DNA of 64,000 nucleotides from Octopus vulgaris (taxonomy: Eukaryota), in assembly GCA_951406725.2 (NCBI GenBank), contig OX597835.1:27776001-27840000 (forward strand). The letters are read 5' to 3'. Below are positions 1 through 62,189 of the stretch, in pieces. A program made the translations under genes and the position numbers. Numbering within the stretch: position 1 is the stretch's first letter; every line of letters begins with the position of its first letter. The notes below the pieces were generated by a model, which saw nothing but the letters and a program-made list of their open reading frames with translations, did no database searches and had not been told where the DNA came from.

Positions 1-584
1 CATATATGTATATATATGTATATATATATATATATGTATATATATATACATATGCATATATATGTATATATATATATATACATATCCACACAGACACACA
101 TATATATAAACACATACATACCAATGTATGCTAATACATTGATATATATATATATATATATGCATACATACACTCACACACACATACACACACACACACA
201 CACACATGCATATATATGCACATTAAAGAGCTGCACACGAACATGAAAGTGTAAACTGTTAAAACCTGTTAAAAGGTATTGAGACAGATCTGGCAAAAAT
301 ATGTAAGTTATGGTTTCTATGAAAGCCTTCAACGGCAACATTGGTCACTCGCATATCAAAAGAATATGTTGAAGCTGTATTCATTAGCTTCTCACATCAC
401 AGCTCAGCAATCGTCAGGAGTTCTTTGACTGTCAAAAAAATATATTGTTCTGACTTCAATGTCATATACTTTGCCACGTCATTGCTACATTGTGCTTTTT
501 TCCAGATATGAGTCACAGCTCAAATTCTCCGTACTGTTGACAGTTAACACTTCATTCTGAATTTTCATCTGGCAAATTAGGGCT

Positions 585-795
585 TACTCTTTACTCTTTT
601 CCTTGTTTCAGTCATTTGACTGCGGCCATGCTGGAGCACCACCTTTAGTCGAACAAATCGACCCCGGGACTTATTCTTCTGTAAGCCCAGTACTTATTCT
701 ATCGGTCTCTTTTGCCGAACCGCTAAATGACGGCGACGTAAACACACCGGCATCGGTTGTCAAGCAATGCTAGGGGGACAAACACAGACACACAT

Positions 796-832
<37 letters not shown>

Positions 833-997
833 TACGACAGGCTTCTTTCAGTTTCCGTCTACCAAATGCACTCACAAGGCTTTGGTCGGCCCAAGGCTAT
901 AGTAGAAGACACTTGCGCAAGATGCCACGCAGTGGGACTGAACCCGGAACCATGTGGTTGGTAAGCAAGCTACTTACCACACAGCCACTCCTGCGCC
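585..997 (-). mobile_element. SINE family A (tRNA head, internal (TA/TG)n, tail ...gactgaaacaagtaaaagag), full copy
   Basis: Head ggcgcaggagtggctgtgtggtaag..ggttcagtccc; the most abundant repeat. Other copies, approximate: 1105-1420(-), 6430-6782(+), 23168-23525(-), 25208-25612(-), 26641-27055(+), 31700-32130(-), 32577-32979(-), 41543-42220(-), 43697-44065(+), 53040-53400(-), 53911-54290(+), 55158-55485(+), 57090-57470(-), 59230-59640(-), 62312-62709(-). Confidence 0.9.
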
Positions 998-1855
998 TGT
1001 TTTGTTTTGTTTTGTTTTTTTTTTCTTTTTCTTTGTTAAAGACAAAATTCTCAATAAATGAACTTGGTCTTTCTCTAATCTCTTCTACATGGTTAAGTGG
1101 CTTTCATTGCTTTGCTGTCCTTTTAATTGCTTGCTGGGGCATGGACCTTGTAAACAAATCGACCCCAGGAAATATTTTTTCAAGTTTGGTACTTATTCAA
1201 ACGATCTCTTTTGCTAAATTGCTCCTGGTTGTGAAGTGGTGGAGGAACCCCACCCACAAACACACACACAAAACAGGATTCTTTCAGTTTTCATCAAACA
1301 AATCCGCTCAACTTGGGGCTATAGTTGAAGCCACTTGCCAAAGGCAGCAGGTAGTGGGGCTGAACCCAGAACCAAGTGGTCGGAAAGCAAACTTCTTACA
1401 AAATAGCTATGCCTGCACCTATAAACTTCTGTAAAGTTTATTTCAAAGAATCTAAGAATAATCTTGGTACCAAGCATACTGCTGACAGTCTGTGATGTTT
1501 ACATACATACATACAAGATGGACTCTCCTCTCAAAGACAATGACCAAGTGTTCAGCTTCTTGCTGAATGACCAGCACAAATGACTTGTTTATAATGACCA
1601 AATGTATATGCTGTACATTAGTTCACTCCTTCCATCAAATCAGCATTACCTGAACAGGTGCATGGTGTACCGCGGGTCAGGTATCAAAATGATCACAGAG
1701 CAATGTGAGATGAAGTGTTTTTCTCAAGAACACAACACACCACCTGGTCTTGCAATTGAAATCATGATCTCACAATAGTAACTGCAACACTCTAACCATT
1801 AAGTCATGAACCCTCACAAATAACATATATACATACATGCATACATACATACATA

Positions 1856-2045
1856 CTTGCTGAGTTTCTTGATCAGTGTCCAAGTCTCAGACCCATACAA
1901 CACCACAGACTCCACTGCAGCAGTGAAGAGAGAGATCTTCAGGTTTTTACAAAGGTCTGACTTCCATACAGATCTCAAACTGTGGCATGGCATCCAGGCT
2001 TTGCTCTTCCTCTCAACTACCCCTTTCACTTTTCTATACATACAT

Positions 2046-2084
<39 letters not shown>

Positions 2085-2650
2085 CATACATACATACATA
2101 CATACATACATACATACATACACATATATACATATCTAGGGTGGGTAAAATTCCTGAGATTCATGGACGAGTGGTCTTTGTCCCTCATCATCGTTGCCAT
2201 GTCCTATCTCTCTCAGAGACCAGTGTCTGTTCTTAGGGCATCAACATATGTCATCTTTGGTATCCTTTTCTAGTGTGTCCATGTAGGAGATCCCCCAGGA
2301 GCACTGACTGGAGTATGAATTCTGAATGACGGTGAGTATGTCCAGCTAATCTCAGTCTCCTCTGTGTTATTTTCGAGCTGACTATTGGGAGGCTCTTGTA
2401 CAGCTCCGGGTTCTTCATCCTCAGTGTATACTGATTAATGTTCAGAGCCACCCTCAGCATTCTCATCTAGCACCCATCCACCATCTGAGTGAGTTTCTTG
2501 GTCAGTGTCCAAGTCTCAGACCCATACAGCAGCACAGACTCCACTGTAGCAACAAAGTGATGGATCTTCACATCTTTACAAAGGTCTGACTTCCATACAG
2601 ATCTCAAAATGTGGCATGCCACCCAGGCTTTACTCTTCCTCACAACTATA
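1856..2650 (-). mobile_element. RTE-clade LINE 3' fragments (the same segment present twice: ~1856-2030 and ~2250-2650)
   Basis: KSKAW.ACH.LRSVWKSDL...VESVLLYGSETWTL...RMLRVALNI...QRRLRLAGH, the typical RTE RT C-terminus; stops present. Confidence 0.88.
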
Positions 2651-2656
2651 TCACTC

Positions 2657-3100
2657 ATACATACATGTATGTATGTATGTATGTATGTATGTATGTATGT
2701 ATGTATGTATGTATGTATGTATGTATGTATGTATGTATGTATGTATGTATGTATGTATGTATGTATGTATGTATGTATGTATGTATGTATGTATGTGTGT
2801 ATGTATGCATGTATGTATATATGTATGTATGTGTGTATGTGTGTATGTATGTATGTATGTATGTATGTATGTGTGTGTATGCATATATGTATGTGTGTAT
2901 GTATGCATGTATGTATGTATGTACGTATGTGTATGTAGGCATGTATGTATGTATGTGTGTATGTATGCATGTATGTATGTGTGTATGTATGCATGTATGT
3001 GTGTATGTATGTATGTATGTATGTATGTATGTATGTATGTATGTATGCATGCATGCATGCATGTATGTATGTATACACATATATATGTATACACATATAT
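2657..3100. repeat. (ATGT)n microsatellite; a similar tract lies at 11040-11325
   Basis: Direct reading. Confidence 0.95.
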
Positions 3101-3409
3101 ATTACACAAACACACATCTGTTAAGGCAAGATCTCAATAGTTTCTTATAATAAAAGAATTTAAGAAGCAAAATTTTAATTTCTTTAAGTATTTCTGCCAG
3201 TCTCATAAATGATTAATTTCACAACACACACAAAAAAAAAACGAAATTCTTCTCAATTTCTGAAGTTATGTGCAAATATAATAATCTATAAGATTTAGTT
3301 AAGTAATCTGATCTCAAACTGATTCCATTTCAAATTACTTCTCTTGGAAAAATCAGTAATATTTACAAATTGAGTTCAAATACATAAAAGCATTTATTTC
3401 ATCAAGATA

Positions 3410-4288
3410 CGTGGTCTGATCAATAAGTATCCTAATTGTTACCACAGTAACTAAACTAAAGCTCACAGAGTGAAGCTGCTGGGTACATATTGACCTTGAC
3501 CTCTGCTGTGCATGCACACTAAGTATTAACATTCTAGCTCACTTCTGCTGTTTACAGCAGTGCATGGAAGGAAAGTGTGTAGCATATGATTGTCACATTG
3601 ACCATGACAAAGAAATCTGAGCAGAGAATCTGCATCAAATTTTGCCAAAAGCTTGGTGATACCTGCTCAGAGGCCTATACAAAGTTTTCAAAAAGTTTTC
3701 ATCATTCTTCACACAATCAAGGCGATCTTGTGCAACTGAAACCCCAGTGTCATTTTGGTCAGCTGAAAGCAGTTTTGGCACAAACTTTGCAGACACGCAT
3801 CTCATATCCAAATCTTCAGTGATAATGCACTGAACTGAACCATAACTAATCTGCACATCCTTTGATAACTCACAGATTATGATTCGATGATTTCCCCTCA
3901 CAGCTGCATGCACACCTGTGATGTTTTTCTCAGTTCTGCTAGTTGAAGGTCTCCCAGAACGTTCGTCACTATTAATATTTTTCTGGCCATCTTGGAAACG
4001 TCTGAACCACTTGTACACGTGTGTGCAGCTCAAACACTTTCTACAACTGTGTGTAGGCCTTGAGCAGGTATTGCCAGGACAACTTTCTTTTTCATGGTCA
4101 ATGTAATGATCACACGCTACACATCTTCCTTCCAAGCACTGCTGTAAACAGCAGAAGTGAGCTAGAACATTGAAACTTAGTGCACATACACAACAGAGTT
4201 TAAGGTCAATCTTTGCCAAGCAGCTTCCTCTGCATGCTTTAGCTAAGTTACTATGGCAACAGACCGGATACTTATTTATTAGACCTTG
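3410..4288. mobile_element. mariner (Tc1/mariner) relic with two inverted 5' ends
   Basis: TA TSDs (3408-3409, 4289-4290). Imperfect TIRs cgtggtctgatcaataagtatcc / ggatacttatttattagaccttg. HTH fragments EQRICIKFCQKLG (+) and VYKWFRRFQDG..DERSGRPSTS..VSAKFVPKLL (-). Confidence 0.9.
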
Positions 4289-5338
4289 TAAGCTAGATCA
4301 AGTATGGCTTCAGAACTTCTTTTAGCATTATAATGATAATAATAACCCTTTCTTCTATAAGCACAAGGTCTGAAATTTTGGAAGAGGGGACTAGTCAATT
4401 ATATTGACCCCGTTGTTTCACTGGTACTTAAATTATCAACCCCAAAAGAATGAAAGGCAAAGTCAACCCCAGCGAATTTTGAATTCAGAGATTTGCAAAG
4501 TGTAGATGTGGAGGCCTTCGTAGAGAACCCAGGCAAATTTTTATCTGGAGGACCCCATAGTCATTTAAAAAACTAGTTTTATAGAAACTTCTTTCAAAAT
4601 TCCTATTTTGTTGTGTATGTTGAACCATGTAAACTGTCAGGGGAAGAAACTGAGGTGTTTCTTGCAATACATACCAATACATACAACTAAAGCAACATTT
4701 TTTCAAGGGGCCCTTAAAGTAGTATTGTGGATCCACAATTTATTATTCGGCTGTATGGACACCCCAAAATCTTATATGGATCTTCAGGGGCCATATGGAT
4801 CCCATTCAAGAACAGTAGTTCCTTGCATTGAATGATGATGATGATGAAAAGAAGAAATAAATTTCCAGGTCAAAAATATATGCTCCCAATATTTTCAAAA
4901 TGAAAGGAAAAGTAGAATCAATCTAAATAAATAACGGGTAAATACAAGTGGATATTCCTTAAGTATAGAAGAGTTCAGAAAGTAAAAATACTCATTTACA
5001 AAACACCATTTCTTGCAGTAGTGAACCTTTGCTGAATTCTTCTGAATGTTTTACAAGAGTTTGTAAATTGAAGTTAAATGCCAAACACACATGTGCACAA
5101 TGCGAGAAATTATATACAAAACATCAAAGAGAAAATTGTTAATGTAGCATTATACTTGAGTATGAAAAACAAAAAGAGGGAAGAAGAATGGTGGGTAAAA
5201 AAAAAAAAATGTTTCTGATTTTAGGTAAAATAAATCTGGAAGGTGGGGGGGAACAAATTGTATTATGTCTGAGATTGCAATGTATTCAGGTAGATATGGT
5301 TTTATTTAAAAGAAATATTAATAAAAATTTATAAATAC

Positions 5339-5347
5339 CTTCCCAGT
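5339..5347 (-). CDS. unc-13: candidate 9-nt microexon of unc-13 (ACTGGGAAG; reads D-W-E in phase 1)
   Basis: TACTAAAT branch-like motif, tract ctgttttctctttttctctttaatttgcag, 9 nt, donor AAG|gtattt. Symmetric, no stop. No transcript evidence. Confidence 0.55.
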
Positions 5348-5446
5348 CTGCAAATTAAAGAGAAAAAGAGAAAACAGATTTAGTATAAAAGCTGATATAA
5401 AACAAAAATATAGTATAAAACACAATATATATATATATATATAAAT

Positions 5447-5515
<69 letters not shown>

Positions 5516-7813
5516 CAAATGTATATATATACAAACACAAATATAGAATGAAACATAAAATACAGATATATTATGAAACGTGAAATATATATAACATAAA
5601 ACATAGTACATAACAAAGAATATATTTTGTTTAAACATGTGCTACACTCTGGTGGCCAGTTACTGTAAGAGAGATAATCATTTCTAGACAAATGTTGGTG
5701 AGATTGGAAATTTGACTTTTAAAATGAAGAACTTAATAGAATATACATATTTTATTTTTATTTACAGACTCATTACGAAGATGTAAAAAATTCTAGTTAT
5801 AGGTAAACATATCTAGCACCATTTCATTCTTATTGGAAATCATCAGCATGATGATAACCCAAGGCAAATAAATTAAATGAATTTAAATATTTTTCAAAGC
5901 AAGATATTTCTTACAGTGGAAAGCAATATACAGTTTAGAGGACATTCATGATAAAGTATGCAATTAACATAAGAATAGATATATGGGATATGAGAAGAAT
6001 ATATCAAATAAAACTATTTCTAAAATGCCAAAACAATAAAAATTGCCGAAAGGGATTTTGTTGAAAAGTGGTAGGGCATAAAGAAAAATATGAAACTGAT
6101 AATCTAAAAAGTTATTTAAATGTCCAAATGTTGAAATCAAGTTGTTAACAAGATTAGAATTTCTCAAACTATTCACCTCATTTTTAGAGATTAATGATGT
6201 TTGAATGCATCACATCTACATTCTATTCTGATCAGATTAATTTCTAATCATATTCCTGGATATGTACATAGTATGTGACTGGATTTAATCTAATTTGGAA
6301 TTTCGTTTAGAAAATAAAGAAAATTGAAGATCAAACCTATACGAACATAGTGTACATATAAAATATTGCCAAAATGGTTTCACTTCTAAAGATGAAATTG
6401 ACAGTCTGAAGAATTATGATGTAAAGGTATGGACATAGCTGCATGGTTAAGAAGCTCATTTTGCATCTATGAAATTACAGGTTCAATACCTTGAGCAAGT
6501 GTTTTCTACTACAGCCCTGGTTTGACCAATGCCTTGGGAGTGAATTTGACTGATAGAAACTGTAAAACCACAGTGTCTGTATGCATATGTGTGTGTACCC
6601 TCTCCACCACCACTTGACAGCTGGTGTTGGTTTATTTGCATCCTTGTAACTTAGTGGTTTAGCAAAAGAGGCAAATAGAATAAGTGTCACATTAAAAATT
6701 AAACACCTGGCACCCCTGTGTGGCTGTGCTCCAGTATGGCCAAAGCTTAATGACTGAAGGAAGTGAAAAGAAAAGATATAAAGATAACCCAACAAGAACA
6801 TCAAAAATATAAGTCATATAATAAACCAGTCCATTTTGTAGAATTAGTCATAAAACTGGCAGAGTTGCTAGAACACAGGGAAAAAAACTTTGCAGTCTTT
6901 GTCCCAAGTCGAAAGGTAAGCTACTATAAATCGGCACGGACTTTCCAGACAACCCAATAGATACTGCTAAGGAATTGCCAGATTCTTTTGGCTCATACTG
7001 TAGCACGTTTCTTCCTACCCACCATACCAAGTTGAGTGCAACTGTAATAACTCCAATCCCAATCACATAACAACTATTTTGTTTTGCTACTTGTTGAAGT
7101 GGTGTTCTTTGCTCTCAGACTTGTAAAGAATTCTTTTCTTTTCAAAACATACTTTAATTCTAAGTTGCTAAATTAACAATATAAATATATACAAACTGCT
7201 TCGATTAGAATACGTAATTTCCTCAAAATCAAAGCAATGTAATCCCAAATAAATGTTCAATTGCTATTTATTAAAATGCTTTCACATGCTTTTATTATTA
7301 TTTCACTAACTGCAAGTGTAATCTTTAATTGAAGATTACCTCAATTAATTCACAGCTTTTAATTAGAAAATATATCACACAGAGAGCTTGAATTAGTGTA
7401 TTTCTTTCAATTAATTCAAATTAAAATAAATAGATAAGTTAAGAGATGATGATTTTTACGTCATTGTTTTTAGTTTTGCTTTTTACTTTTAAATATAAAC
7501 CAATTTAAATTTTGTTCTGGTATTTTGATATTGGATATTATTTTACTTTCATTTCGTAAGACACATAAATCAAAATGATTATCTAACTTCTGAACCTGTT
7601 TCCACCACACTATTTAATATATATACATATAAACACACACATATATATTTACACACAACACATACATACATATGTACACATATATATATAAATACATATA
7701 TATATATTTTTACGCACAACACATACATATGTACACATATATATATATAAATATATATATATTTACACACAACACATACATACATATGTACACACACACA
7801 CACACACATACAT

Positions 7814-7872
<59 letters not shown>

Positions 7873-8554
7873 AACGAAAGCATTAAACTGGGCCAGTATA
7901 CATAGATTAAAATATATATAAAAGACAGGAAAAAGAAAGGAAAAACTACATAATGAAGAGCCAAAATGTAACAAGCAATGATATTTTAAAAATTACGGGA
8001 ATAACAAAAGTAAAAAGTAACAAAAACAAAAGCTGCATTGACTCAAATCTTTAGAAATATTATATACAGAAGCATACTTCAAATTTCAATTTTAAATTGA
8101 GACTAAATTGATAGCAAGAGCAACATGTAATTTAATCTAAGAATGGTCTTTTAACACAGTATTTACACCGGCCATAAATATCTTAAATAATCCACCTATT
8201 TTATACTAAAACTAGCCAGGTTTAGTCTCTCCCACCTGTCCTACAATGTTATTCTAAAAATAATCAATAGTGCCACAAAAATTTTGAAGCTACTGTATCA
8301 GTGGTTCTTAACCAGAGTTCACATGACCCTTAAGGGTCCATGTAGAATTTAGACTTTAGCATCATCATTATCATCGGCAACAGAGAGATGCTGGAGACTG
8401 GCATACTGGTATAGAGGCTTGTAATAGACCTGAAGAGATAGTGTACACTAGCATACTAGTATGCAGGCTTGTAACAGAACCAAAATAATAAGGCACTAAA
8501 AGAGAATGACCCTCCCCAGAAACAATAAAATTCTGATTTAATTTGATCAGCATT

Positions 8555-8910
8555 ATCATCATCATCGTTTAACGTCTGCTTTCCATGCTAGCATGGGTTG
8601 GACGATTTTGACTGAGGGTTGGCGAACCAGACGGCCGCACCAAGCTCTAATCTTGATCTGGCAGAGTTTCTTCAGCTGGATGCCCTTCCTAACGCCAACC
8701 ACTCCGAGAGTGTAGTGGGTGCTTTTTACATGCTACCAGCACGGGGGCCAGTCAGGCGGTACTGGCAACAACCTCGCTTGAATCTTTTTACACATGCCAC
8801 CGGCACAGGTGCCAGTGAAGTGACGTTGGTAACGATCACAATTAAATGGTGGGCGACGTTGGTAACGATCACGCTCAAATGGTGAGGGCCAACGTTGCTA
8901 ATGATCATGC
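8555..8910 (-). mobile_element. retroposon 3' end family E with (GAT)n tail
   Basis: ggttggcgttaggaagggcatccagc...ggacgttaaacgatgatg. Copies at ~36770-36970, 40640-40830, 42758-42890, 45358-45535, 50403-50685 and 52310-52970. Confidence 0.8.
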
Positions 8911-9194
8911 TGGAAAGTTTAAATCTAAACACTAAGGGACATTTTAAAAGAAGGCAAATTGCCATTGAAACCTTGCTTTCTCCCATTTTCAGGTTTAGTA
9001 ATTAAAGAATTTGGCTCGTGCTCAATAAGAACATTTGTGTAAACTGTGAATTCACATTTGCATTGGGTTGTTTGCAATAACATTTAAGCAAAATTAAGAG
9101 ATCTGATTTTCTCTCTTAAAACAACAAAGTCGACAAATTTATCAACTTACACAAAAGATTTGGTAAAAAATATAAGCTGAATTGCAATTCAGCT

Positions 9195-9232
<38 letters not shown>

Positions 9233-9384
9233 TAATAATATTAATGTTCACAATTTTGAAATATACTTCAGTAATGAAAAATCAAATTAAAATAAGGTAT
9301 TAAATAACAAACTGTAGATTAAATGAGAAACATTTAACTCAAATGGAGGGATATTTCTCAAATATATTCAAAGGATAACATCCT

Positions 9385-9415
<31 letters not shown>

Positions 9416-9726
9416 CACACACATACATGTATGTTTGTGTGTGCATGTGTATGTATATATGTATGTGTGTGTGTGTATGTGTGTGCGCATGCGTGTGTGT
9501 ATATATATCTATATGCACACATACATACCTATATACATACATATACACGCACACATATGCTAGTAACCACAATACTTCAATATATGGACACGGCTGAGCT
9601 GTCAACGACTAAACAAGAAATCCCATGAAACTATGCTTAGCGAGTCCAGTGATTCATCTCTGATGGACAAAAGACAAAATCAATCAGAGAGTGAGCACTA
9701 TCGCAAATGAGTCAACAGCCATTCAG

Positions 9727-9776
<50 letters not shown>

Positions 9777-11138
9777 ATGTGTGCATGATGTCTATTGTGT
9801 ATCATTTATCTTTTGAAAGTGCTTGGCTCAGTGGTTAAAGCATCGCGCTCACAATCATAAGGTAGCGAGTTCGATTCCTGGACCGGGATGCATGCTGTGT
9901 TCTTGAGCAAGACGCTTTATTTTTCACATTACTCCAGTTCACTCAGCTGTAGAAATGAGTTGCGACGTCACTGGTGCTAAACTGTATCAGCCTTTGCCTT
10001 TCCCTTGGATAAGAGCAGTGGTGTGGAGAGGCTGGTATGCATGGGTGATTGCTGGTCTTCCATAAACCACCTTGGCCGGACTTGTGCCAAGGAGGGTAAA
10101 TTTCTAGGTGCAATCCCATGGTCATTCATGACTGAGGGCGATCCTCTCTATCTTTTACTTCTTTCAGTCATTAGACTGCAGCCAAATCCACTCACAAGTC
10201 TTTGGTCGGCCCGAGGGCTATAGTAGAAGACACTTGCCTAAAGTGCCATGCAGTGGGACTGAACTCAGAACCATGTGGTTGGAAAGCAAGCTACTTACTA
10301 CACAGCCATATTGGCACCAACAGTTATATTTACATGCAGATGACAGAAGAATAATGTGATTCGAAATATGCAGTATTTAATAGTCTCTAACTACCATGCT
10401 TTTGTTTTTCTGTAAGTGATTAAACAGGCACAAACATTGAAAGACTAGTACTGGCCTGACACAAGCATTTGTACCTATGACACAATATGAGAGGACACTT
10501 TGGCTTGTAGTTTCTAATTGCTTTACTCATTAGACTGTGGTCATGCTGGAGCAATGCCGTGGAGAGTTTTAGTCAAACGAATCAAGCCCAATGCTTAAGC
10601 CTGGAACCTTGTTCTGTCAGCCTCTTTGCCAATTTGCCAAGTTATAGGGATGTAAACAGACCGACACTGGTTGTTAATCAGTGGTAGGAGTCACACACTA
10701 AATATGCTCACATACATACACAACCATACATTCATATATGTATGTACGCATGTATGTATATATGTGTGTATACATATATATATGTATATACACACATACA
10801 TTTACACTCATAGTATGCGTACATACAGTATACATACACACAAACATTCATACATGCTCACATACATACAAAATCATACATTTTATATATATACATATAT
10901 ATATGTATGTGTGTGTATATATATATTTATACACACACACACATACATTTACACCCATAATATATGTACATACAGTATACATACACACATTCATAAATGC
11001 CCACATTCTTACAAAATCATACATTTTACATATATATGCATGCATGCATATATGTATGTATGCATGTATGTATGTATGTATGTGTGTATGTAAGTATGTA
11101 TGTGTGTGTGTATGTATGTATGTATGTATGTATGTATG

Positions 11139-11169
<31 letters not shown>

Positions 11170-11238
11170 GTATGTATGTAAGTATGTATGTATGTATGTA
11201 TGTATGTATGTATGTATGTATGTATGTATGTATGTATG

Positions 11239-11270
<32 letters not shown>

Positions 11271-11841
11271 CGTACGTACGTACGAACGTATGTATGTATG
11301 TATGTATGTATGTATGTATGTATGTGGAAAACAGATAGAGAAGATGGAAGAGAGGAAGAGAAGCAAAGATAATCAATATACAATACTTTAACACTTCATT
11401 CCTTCTTCCGCTGTACATCAAACTGATAGTTCATAGCTTGTTTAAATATGCATTTAATAAAATCCAAGAAACAGAAAAATTACACCTAAGATAGCAGAGC
11501 TATTCCAAAATCTATATTGGCTTCTTAGCATTTTTATGTGCATTTATTATTTATAGTTGTAGCAGCAGTTGTTGTCATAAGCACGCTCTCTTTCATATAT
11601 ATATATGTAGGCCTATATATATATATATACATTTATGTAGTATATATATATTTCCATAGTATGTATACACACACATATAAATAAATATTTATATGCATAT
11701 ATATATTTATAAATATATAATTTTAATAAATATATATAGTAAATCCCAAAACAGAAGACAAACACAAAAAAAACAACAACAATGCAAGGATGTGGTACAT
11801 GCAAAGTATTAGCAATGTATATACATATATGAATGTGTATT

Positions 11842-11883
<42 letters not shown>

Positions 11884-11910
11884 CATATATATATATACAC
11901 ATACATACAC

Positions 11911-11965
<55 letters not shown>

Positions 11966-12088
11966 TGTGTGTATATATATAGGATAGATATACATACATA
12001 CATATATATATATATACATACATATATATATACACATATGCATATATACATATATATATACACATATACATATATATTCATATATATC

Positions 12089-12119
<31 letters not shown>

Positions 12120-12277
12120 ATATACATATCTATATACATATCTATATACATACATATATATATATATACATACATACATATATGTATGTATAAATGTATA
12201 CATATGAATTACTTAAGCACTCTAGATATCAATAATGAAAGCATAAAGCATTGACTAAAGGCAAAATTGATGCCTAC

Positions 12278-12286
12278 CTTCATATC
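12278..12286 (-). CDS. unc-13: candidate 9-nt microexon of unc-13 (GATATGAAG; reads G-Y-E in phase 1)
   Basis: Branch-like CTAAC (12323-12327), long pyrimidine tract, acceptor ttttcttacacag, 9 nt, donor AAG|gtaggc. Symmetric, with no stop in phase 1 or phase 0. No transcript evidence. Confidence 0.55.
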
Positions 12287-23705: not shown

Positions 23706-23829
23706 CATAGGGAAGTTCAAATCGGGCATCAATAAGAATGCTGTGACCAGTGGAGCCTCGAGTTCCAATAATTTCCCCATTCTTCATGATCAATTCACCA
23801 TCCAAGGAAAACCATTTTCCCTGGCCTTC
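23706..23829 (-). CDS. unc-13: unc-13/Munc13 coding exon, C2A domain C-terminal part (phase 0 to phase 1, 124 nt)
   Basis: Acceptor ttttctttttttactttttatag and donor ATG|gtaagt. EGQGKWFSLDGELIMKNGEIIGTRGSTGHSILIDARFELPY aligns to Munc13-1 [41 protein letters not shown] and joins in frame to the 62072 exon (SNQ|EGQG). Not in the ORF track. Confidence 0.96.
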
Positions 23830-62071: not shown

Positions 62072-62189
62072 CTGATTAGAATGGTGAATTTTTCGAAGTG
62101 GAAGCCAATGAAGTCCAAGAAGGCTGTCCCACAACATTCCTTTATTCCATACTTCAATAATCAATCCAGTGTCAAGTCTCATGGTTTCA
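62072..62189 (-). CDS. unc-13: unc-13/Munc13 coding exon, C2A domain middle part (phase 2 to phase 0, 118 nt)
   Basis: Acceptor ttttatctttatttttttcag and donor CAG|gttatt. Translation (x)ETMRLDTGLIIEVWNKGMLWDSLLGLHWLPLRKIHHSNQ aligns without gaps to Munc13-1 C2A [40 protein letters not shown] (recalled sequence). Confidence 0.96.

Follow-up and report, generated by a model that had tools for sequence, protein, structure and literature searches.

Munc13 proteins are described as gripping the zinc finger of RIM by two prongs joined by an extended linker (PMC1472246), the E128K/E137K substitution in Munc13-1 abolishes RIM binding (PMC5436228), and the Unc13-RIM switch is reported to extend to worms and to determine release probability there (PMC6389284). 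The published accounts of unc-13/Unc13b describe a microexon between the CaM site and C1 that is 9 nucleotides (nt) long and encodes VLK in C. elegans, is 6 nt long in mouse, and in the worm is regulated by neuron type and tunes transmission (PMC12287369, PMC4387716). Avian fast troponin T is described as carrying up to seven lineage-specific P exons that encode a repeated acidic motif (PMC7581897). Here we report a string of microexons in the Unc13 gene of Octopus vulgaris, at the junction between the C2A domain and the linker to the RIM-binding helix. The window, meaning the whole stretch of DNA that was analysed, comprises 64,000 nt (contig OX597835.1, C22:27776001-27840000); Unc13 lies on its minus strand, with the remainder of the gene left of the window. 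A single intron holds six frame-preserving units of 9, 9, 12, 15, 15, and 9 nt, all of which end GAAG/GTA and encode W-E or Y-E. They are spaced 3.9 to 12.8 kilobases (kb) apart over a total of 43 kb, and the first two, starting at C22 27788286 and 27781347, are the sole members of the array inside the window. In the list below, P0001 is a homologous protein encoded on a Logan contig of 2536 bases, the one close match returned by a 41-residue query.

Window 12286-12278, minus strand: microexon 1, 9 nt, GATATGAAG, G-Y-E; spliced in all four runs, peptide also in P0001.
Window 5347-5339, minus strand: microexon 2, 9 nt, ACTGGGAAG, D-W-E, donor GTATTTAT; spliced in all four runs, peptide also in P0001.
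C22:27768530-27768519, minus strand: microexon 3, 12 nt, CTGATTGGGAAG, A-D-W-E, AAG acceptor; found through the RNA loose end, which has a single location in the intron.
C22:27758853-27758839, minus strand: microexon 4, 15 nt, CCAGAAATTGGGAAG, A-R-N-W-E; predicted, the C after microexon 3 fitting this unit or the next.
C22:27748824-27748810, minus strand: microexon 5, 15 nt, CCAGGAACTGGGAAG, A-R-N-W-E; predicted, on the same footing as microexon 4.
C22:27744945-27744937, minus strand: candidate microexon 6, 9 nt, GTTATGAAG, G-Y-E, donor GTAAGT; from sequence alone.

Transcript evidence was drawn from 4 runs of 4 studies, out of 20 listed runs that contain the 124-nt exon that ends the C2A domain, and was aligned on that exon as contigs. 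The runs were guessed to be RNA, none being recorded as such, and spliced contig borders were used instead; joints of this kind arise only from splicing, so the contigs represent spliced transcripts. Each run yielded one contig that ended at both borders of the 124-nt exon. The upstream loose end corresponds to the previous C2A exon (three of the four runs show that end), and the downstream loose end of 30 letters is identical in all four, reading microexon 1, microexon 2, the 12-nt exon, and then a C that is compatible with microexon 4 or 5 only. Microexons 1 to 3 are spliced jointly with microexon 4 or 5. Because run depth was 2 to 6 and minor forms are dropped from contigs, these contigs show inclusion and say little on skipping.

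A preliminary description of the window had proposed two isolated 9-nt microexons. Both are real and lie where it placed them, and the chain of junctions that it predicted, from the 124-nt exon to microexon 1 and on to microexon 2, is present in the contigs of all four runs. The count of two did not hold, as these are the first two of six related exons, and its proposal that none, one, or both are included in combination has no support so far: microexons 1, 2, and 3 occur together in every run, with zero skipping. As a whole, the earlier interpretation is partly supported. The co-inclusion also bears on the possibility that the units are mutually exclusive, one per transcript, in the manner of classical tandem duplicated exons. 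The units are paralogous, and such exons are described as often being spliced in this way (PMC9741552), but one splice path in all four runs takes in microexons 1, 2, 3, and a fourth, and P0001 contains two units together, which makes this alternative very improbable. It is already contradicted for microexons 1 to 3, with at least four copies in series where one copy per transcript would be expected.

Microexons 1 and 2 are each flanked by a pyrimidine tract with a CAG acceptor and by a GTA donor, and they were the sole 9-nt units among five microexon-like units in a scan of both strands of the window. Of the branch-like motifs claimed for both units, that of microexon 1 is clear (CTAAC at -41), whereas that of microexon 2 is not, its sole match in a YTRAY scan being TTAAT at -11. 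The AAG acceptor of microexon 3 kept it out of the first intron scan, and the unit was recovered via the RNA. The six units fall into two families. Microexons 1 and 6 are one base apart; microexons 2 to 5 differ by 0 to 1 base in their last nine, have the common donor GTATTTAT, and remain identical for 8 to 14 bases past the exon end. Of a 15-mer that spans this exon end and donor, the 2.8 gigabases of the genome contain 15 copies, 4 in the array intron (all sense) and 11 elsewhere, against 6 of the reversed control; given one copy in the intron, three further copies have a post hoc p of about 3e-13. All six lengths are multiples of three, despite two separate 5' extensions, to 12 and to 15 nt. 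These similarities indicate that the array likely arose by duplication. The units resemble neural microexons in length (within 3 to 27 nt), in their canonical AG/GT sites, in frame preservation (6/6), and, for microexons 1 to 3 and for the opening base of microexon 4 or 5, in being spliced into mRNA. We also observed that microexons 4 and 5 both open with CCAG, which creates an internal acceptor 4 nt downstream and a potential 11-nt frame-shifting exon. That the units are chance intronic sequence or cryptic exons without real use is extremely improbable: AG...GT units of this size do arise randomly in AT-rich introns, and antisense scans return some, but the spliced contigs of four studies, the orthologous peptide, and the highly improbable motif cluster all argue otherwise. 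This possibility is refuted for microexons 1 to 3 and could apply only to microexon 6 and to one of microexons 4 and 5.

The exons that frame the array define its reading frame and its place in the protein.

Window 62072..62189, minus strand: Unc13 C2A exon preceding the 124-nt exon (E-T-M-R-L ... S-N-Q); tblastn 95% to P0001, and its 3' end is matched by the contig loose end.
Window 23706..23829, minus strand: last C2A exon, 124 nt, ending F-E128-L-P-Y131 plus G, phase 1; contig borders in all four runs.
Window 1..5338, minus strand: in-window part of the microexon-bearing intron, which extends past base 1.
C22:27736183-27736101, minus strand: next constitutive exon, 83 nt, D-L-P-E-V-E137..., helical extension; located in the sequence via P0001.

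The 124-nt exon (23829-23706) matches the C2A domain of Munc13-1 (2cjs_A, E 8.5e-9) and terminates TAT G/GTAAGT. The next constitutive exon sits 39.8 kb left of the window start, so that the intron between the two measures 63,522 bases (63.5 kb) and reaches beyond the window. Since this 83-nt exon begins AT CTT CCC, giving D-L-P-E, the phase 1 that had been proposed after the upstream C2A exon is demonstrated rather than inferred. The G-Y-E and D-W-E readings of the preliminary description hold with it, both peptides recurring in P0001, and its expectation that no combination contains a stop extends to the whole array: the 64 possible combinations of the six exons contain 0 stops and yield 47 distinct peptides. 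Alignment to Munc13-1 likewise bears out an insertion between the E128 and E137 equivalents. The numbering equals that of Munc13-1 up to 131, and the insert follows Y131 (L131 in mammals). Inclusion of all six units would add 23 residues at this point, of which 8 are acidic, 2 basic, and 6 aromatic. An AlphaFold model of P0001, which has two units, shows a strand to position 128, coil over 129-140, and a helix over 141-175, and thus places the insertion site in the coil between the last strand of C2A and the RIM-binding helix; the insert itself is modelled with low confidence (predicted local distance difference test, pLDDT, 57).

The relationship of P0001 to this genome bears on the conservation of the two window exons in related species, which the preliminary description had proposed as a check and which is seen so far at the peptide level in this one relative. 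P0001 has the order F-E-L-P-Y, G-Y-E, D-W-E, D-L-P-E, with the first two units only. Its exons are 70-98% identical to those of this genome, compared with about 52-92% for limpet, which suggests a separate lineage that is closely related, most probably another cephalopod. Among the best 120 of 1870 homolog matches there was no named cephalopod, and W-E or Y-E was found within the 25 residues after the anchor in 0 of the 116 anchored homologs, which span vertebrates, arthropods, nematodes, and other molluscs. The listed representatives of the protein searches likewise contained no aromatic-Glu insert.

Other molluscs carry a different optional insert at the same junction. Four residues (DVVA, DFVA, DIVA, or EAVA) are frequent there in gastropods and bivalves, and a survey of 15 listed members per cluster (14 for Lingula) found both the +4 and the skip form annotated in 5 of 9 clusters (Patella, Haliotis, scallops, Mytilus, and Pomacea). 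The skip form was present in oysters, the heterobranch cluster, and Lingula, where one partial entry has an extra G, and Dreissena had the insert form only among the cluster members listed. This insert resembles the array in its position and in keeping the frame, and it is annotated in both an included and a skipped form; it differs in being a single aliphatic unit of unrelated sequence, which may be a microexon or an alternative acceptor. Since both forms are annotated in other molluscs, alternative splicing at the C2A-linker junction is likely older than the array. Longer, unrelated inserts were also observed at the junction in beetles and other insects (P0045, P0066, P0076, and P0155) and in snail-like sequences (P0123, P0209, and P0246), some of which may be annotation errors. 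The junction is uninterrupted in nearly all vertebrate sequences examined. The longer inserts suggest that the C2A-linker junction of Unc13 is a hotspot for optional exons.

Equivalents of K32, E128, and E137, together with the K-T-K of the RIM zinc finger, are present in this genome or in P0001. A PF02318 profile search missed RIM and a PF22601 search found it; an intron interrupts the RIM zinc finger ahead of the final Cys pair and the helix. Two RIM-type zinc-finger exons were noted, at C3:65849326-65849454 and C7:70565457-70565546, one of them RIM-like with K-T-K and the second a family member that lacks it.

The explanation we favour, to which we give about an even chance of being right, is that an array of six microexons, probably duplicated and with four or more units spliced one after another, adds up to 23 acidic-aromatic residues to the linker between C2A and the RIM helix and likely retunes the switch between RIM binding and homodimer. 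The units would lengthen the tether between the two prongs of the RIM clamp and would set eight acidic and six aromatic residues beside the basic RIM zinc finger. A longer tether together with acidic-aromatic contacts could shift the balance of heterodimer and homodimer, and vesicle release would likely be tuned in turn. We lean somewhat towards added RIM contacts over a pure loosening, as the vertebrate aromatics Y140/W141 are missing from the mollusc helix and as, with two units included, a microexon Glu falls at position 137. Inclusion may vary with neuron type, by analogy with the insert that other molluscs include optionally at this position and with the microexon of worm unc-13, whose use is regulated; the four low-depth contig sets contain one splice path, and P0001 contains a shorter string.

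Several observations weigh against this retuning of the switch. In the crystal structure, L131 is described as the only linker residue that packs on RIM (PMC1472246), so inserts in the linker may be tolerated and change little, and the unrelated inserts of beetles and snails make the site look permissive. No skipped or partial isoform was found in the four runs, at a depth of 2 to 6 and in contigs, from which minor forms are dropped. Candidate microexon 6, although it has the best donor of the array, lacks transcript support in these runs, where the loose end covers 30 letters. The vertebrate-type UGC motif upstream of acceptors is missing, with no TGC within 60 nt for five of the six units, and the TGC near microexon 2 is that of its own TGCAG acceptor only; a UGC enhancer before the 3' splice site is of the SRRM4 type and need not apply to invertebrates. 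The flanks, when compared, gave no sign of long-range paralogy further than about 14 bases downstream of the donor. The few high scores in a 400-nt flank alignment (e.g., 204 and 113) lie off the exon families and were taken as simple repeats, not as evidence; as the longer flanks are without convincing paralogy, the duplications are old or short.

Part of this evidence would fit a near-neutral expansion, in which a symmetric microexon was duplicated time and again in a flexible, insertion-tolerant linker and is mostly included with little changed. The varied inserts of other lineages at this site, the further exon duplications within Unc13, and the zero skipping in four runs are in keeping with such an origin. 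We consider it unlikely, though with a real share of the probability, as microexons 1 and 2 are kept as peptide in P0001, whose next exon is only 70% identical, and as W/Y-E and the reading frame are kept in all six units though the flanks have diverged. The constancy of the aromatic residue and Glu in 6/6 units, while the 5' parts vary, would also be expected of a new multivalent docking site for some other protein, such as kinesin light chain or an Atg8-type protein, that the RIM clamp tolerates. Whichever unit is the last to be included, its junction with the 83-nt exon reads (W/Y)-E-D-L, comparable to the consensus of Atg8-type motifs. W-acidic and Y-acidic motifs are described as binding kinesin light chain, calsyntenin having two of them, but the motif of SKIP has Leu two residues before Trp (PMC6214655), where array units have E, A, or R; W-E occurs four times in the array, each time lacking Leu at -2. 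Motifs this short often match by chance, and a docking site of this kind seems to us unlikely.

Elsewhere in the gene, the MUN exons lie at C22 27.44-27.48 megabases, and the CaM, C1, and C2B exons form an unbroken run between. A search of 264 kb found no mutually exclusive second copy of the 83-nt downstream exon. A partial second copy of an Unc13 exon end (G-R-S-D-T-D-S-E...) is present at C22:27701149-27701063, about 200 bases downstream of the original and with 86-90% identity to homologs. Near-identical 20-residue repeats occur on two successive Unc13 exons (C22:27697955-27697896 and 27649168 onward); this duplication is old, as limpet has both copies too.

The CaM-C1 microexon, which encodes V-M-K or V-L-K in other molluscs, appears to be duplicated in this genome, with two copies 32 kb apart that both end GAAG/GTATTTAT.

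C22:27604089-27604081, minus strand: CaM-C1 microexon copy, V-V-K, donor GTATTTAT.
C22:27571766-27571758, minus strand: CaM-C1 microexon copy, V-M-K, donor GTATTTAT.

Both copies were recognised purely from the genomic letters. Like the array, the CaM-C1 microexon belongs to Unc13, is 9 nt long, and preserves the frame, and its octopus copies share the exon end and donor of microexons 2 to 5. It differs in lying in another intron, about 140 kb downstream, in phase 0 rather than 1, and outside the C2A/RIM region; it is also single in the species covered by the accounts cited above, compared with six units in the array. By position, phase, and the V-x-K peptide, the array units in the C2A linker are not CaM-C1 microexons. 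In 464 kb, the 12-mer GAAG/GTATTTAT has six sense-strand copies, each at a microexon, and 0 antisense copies, and no constitutive exon end displayed in that scan has the GTATTTAT donor, most having GTAAG. Candidate microexon 6 and the V-M-K exon differ at one base. On these similarities the array and the CaM-C1 microexon may share a common origin, the reading frame having shifted, but this is rather doubtful, and the shared end could instead reflect common splicing requirements in an AT-rich genome. Genome-wide, generic GAAG/GTATTTAT microexon patterns showed no excess over controls (3 versus 14, 5 versus 8, and 8 versus 6), a weak test, since patterns this strict failed to pick up most of the known cases. 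One TTGCAG-(9 nt ending GAAG)-GTATTTAT unit at C9:72361317-72361339 (plus strand) is possibly a microexon of another gene. Given the single-base difference between microexon 6 and the V-M-K exon, and the end that microexons 2 to 5 share with that exon, a bolder scenario may be sketched, which we regard as quite improbable: cephalopods would have copied the CaM-C1 microexon into the C2A-linker intron in a new frame and grown a combinatorial dial of six units, offering as many as 47 linker peptides, by which each neuron type would set its Unc13-RIM coupling and hence its release probability.

Synaptic gene sets are described as similar in Aplysia and Octopus, with alternative transcripts suggested as a source of diversity (PMC9282427), and the array offers a concrete, testable case of such transcript-level synaptic diversity. 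It places a lineage-specific string of exons within the hinge of the priming switch that has been characterised best, and it points to microexons having multiplied by duplication across 43 kb of intron, and twice in one gene, at lengths easily overlooked by annotation. No report of a C2A-linker microexon array was found in the literature, leaving aside subscription papers, preprint supplements, and the octopus RefSeq models. Octopus bimaculoides is among the species of one preprint (bioRxiv 10.64898/2026.09.05.749416), whose supplements, like those RefSeq models, may already contain the array exons. The micro-exon genes of Schistosoma are whole secreted-protein genes made of many short symmetric exons in series, whereas the octopus units form a paralogous array in one intron of a conserved synaptic gene. 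With the P exons of troponin T the array shares paralogous small exons that are spliced in together, build a peptide repeat, and lengthen a variable segment; that protein is described as a muscle protein with a His-Glu calcium-binding repeat in its variable N-terminal region and known developmental switching (PMC7581897), while the array encodes an aromatic-Glu repeat inside a two-pronged binding clamp. Compared with the Munc13-1 C2A/RIM heterodimer switch (PMC1472246, PMC5436228, PMC6389284), the host module is the same and the key residues are conserved, and the difference is the aromatic-Glu units at the linker, seen in none of the 116 anchored homologs. A microexon elsewhere in Unc13 and tandem repeat-coding exons are thus known; what appears to be new here is the microexon array in the C2A linker of Unc13.

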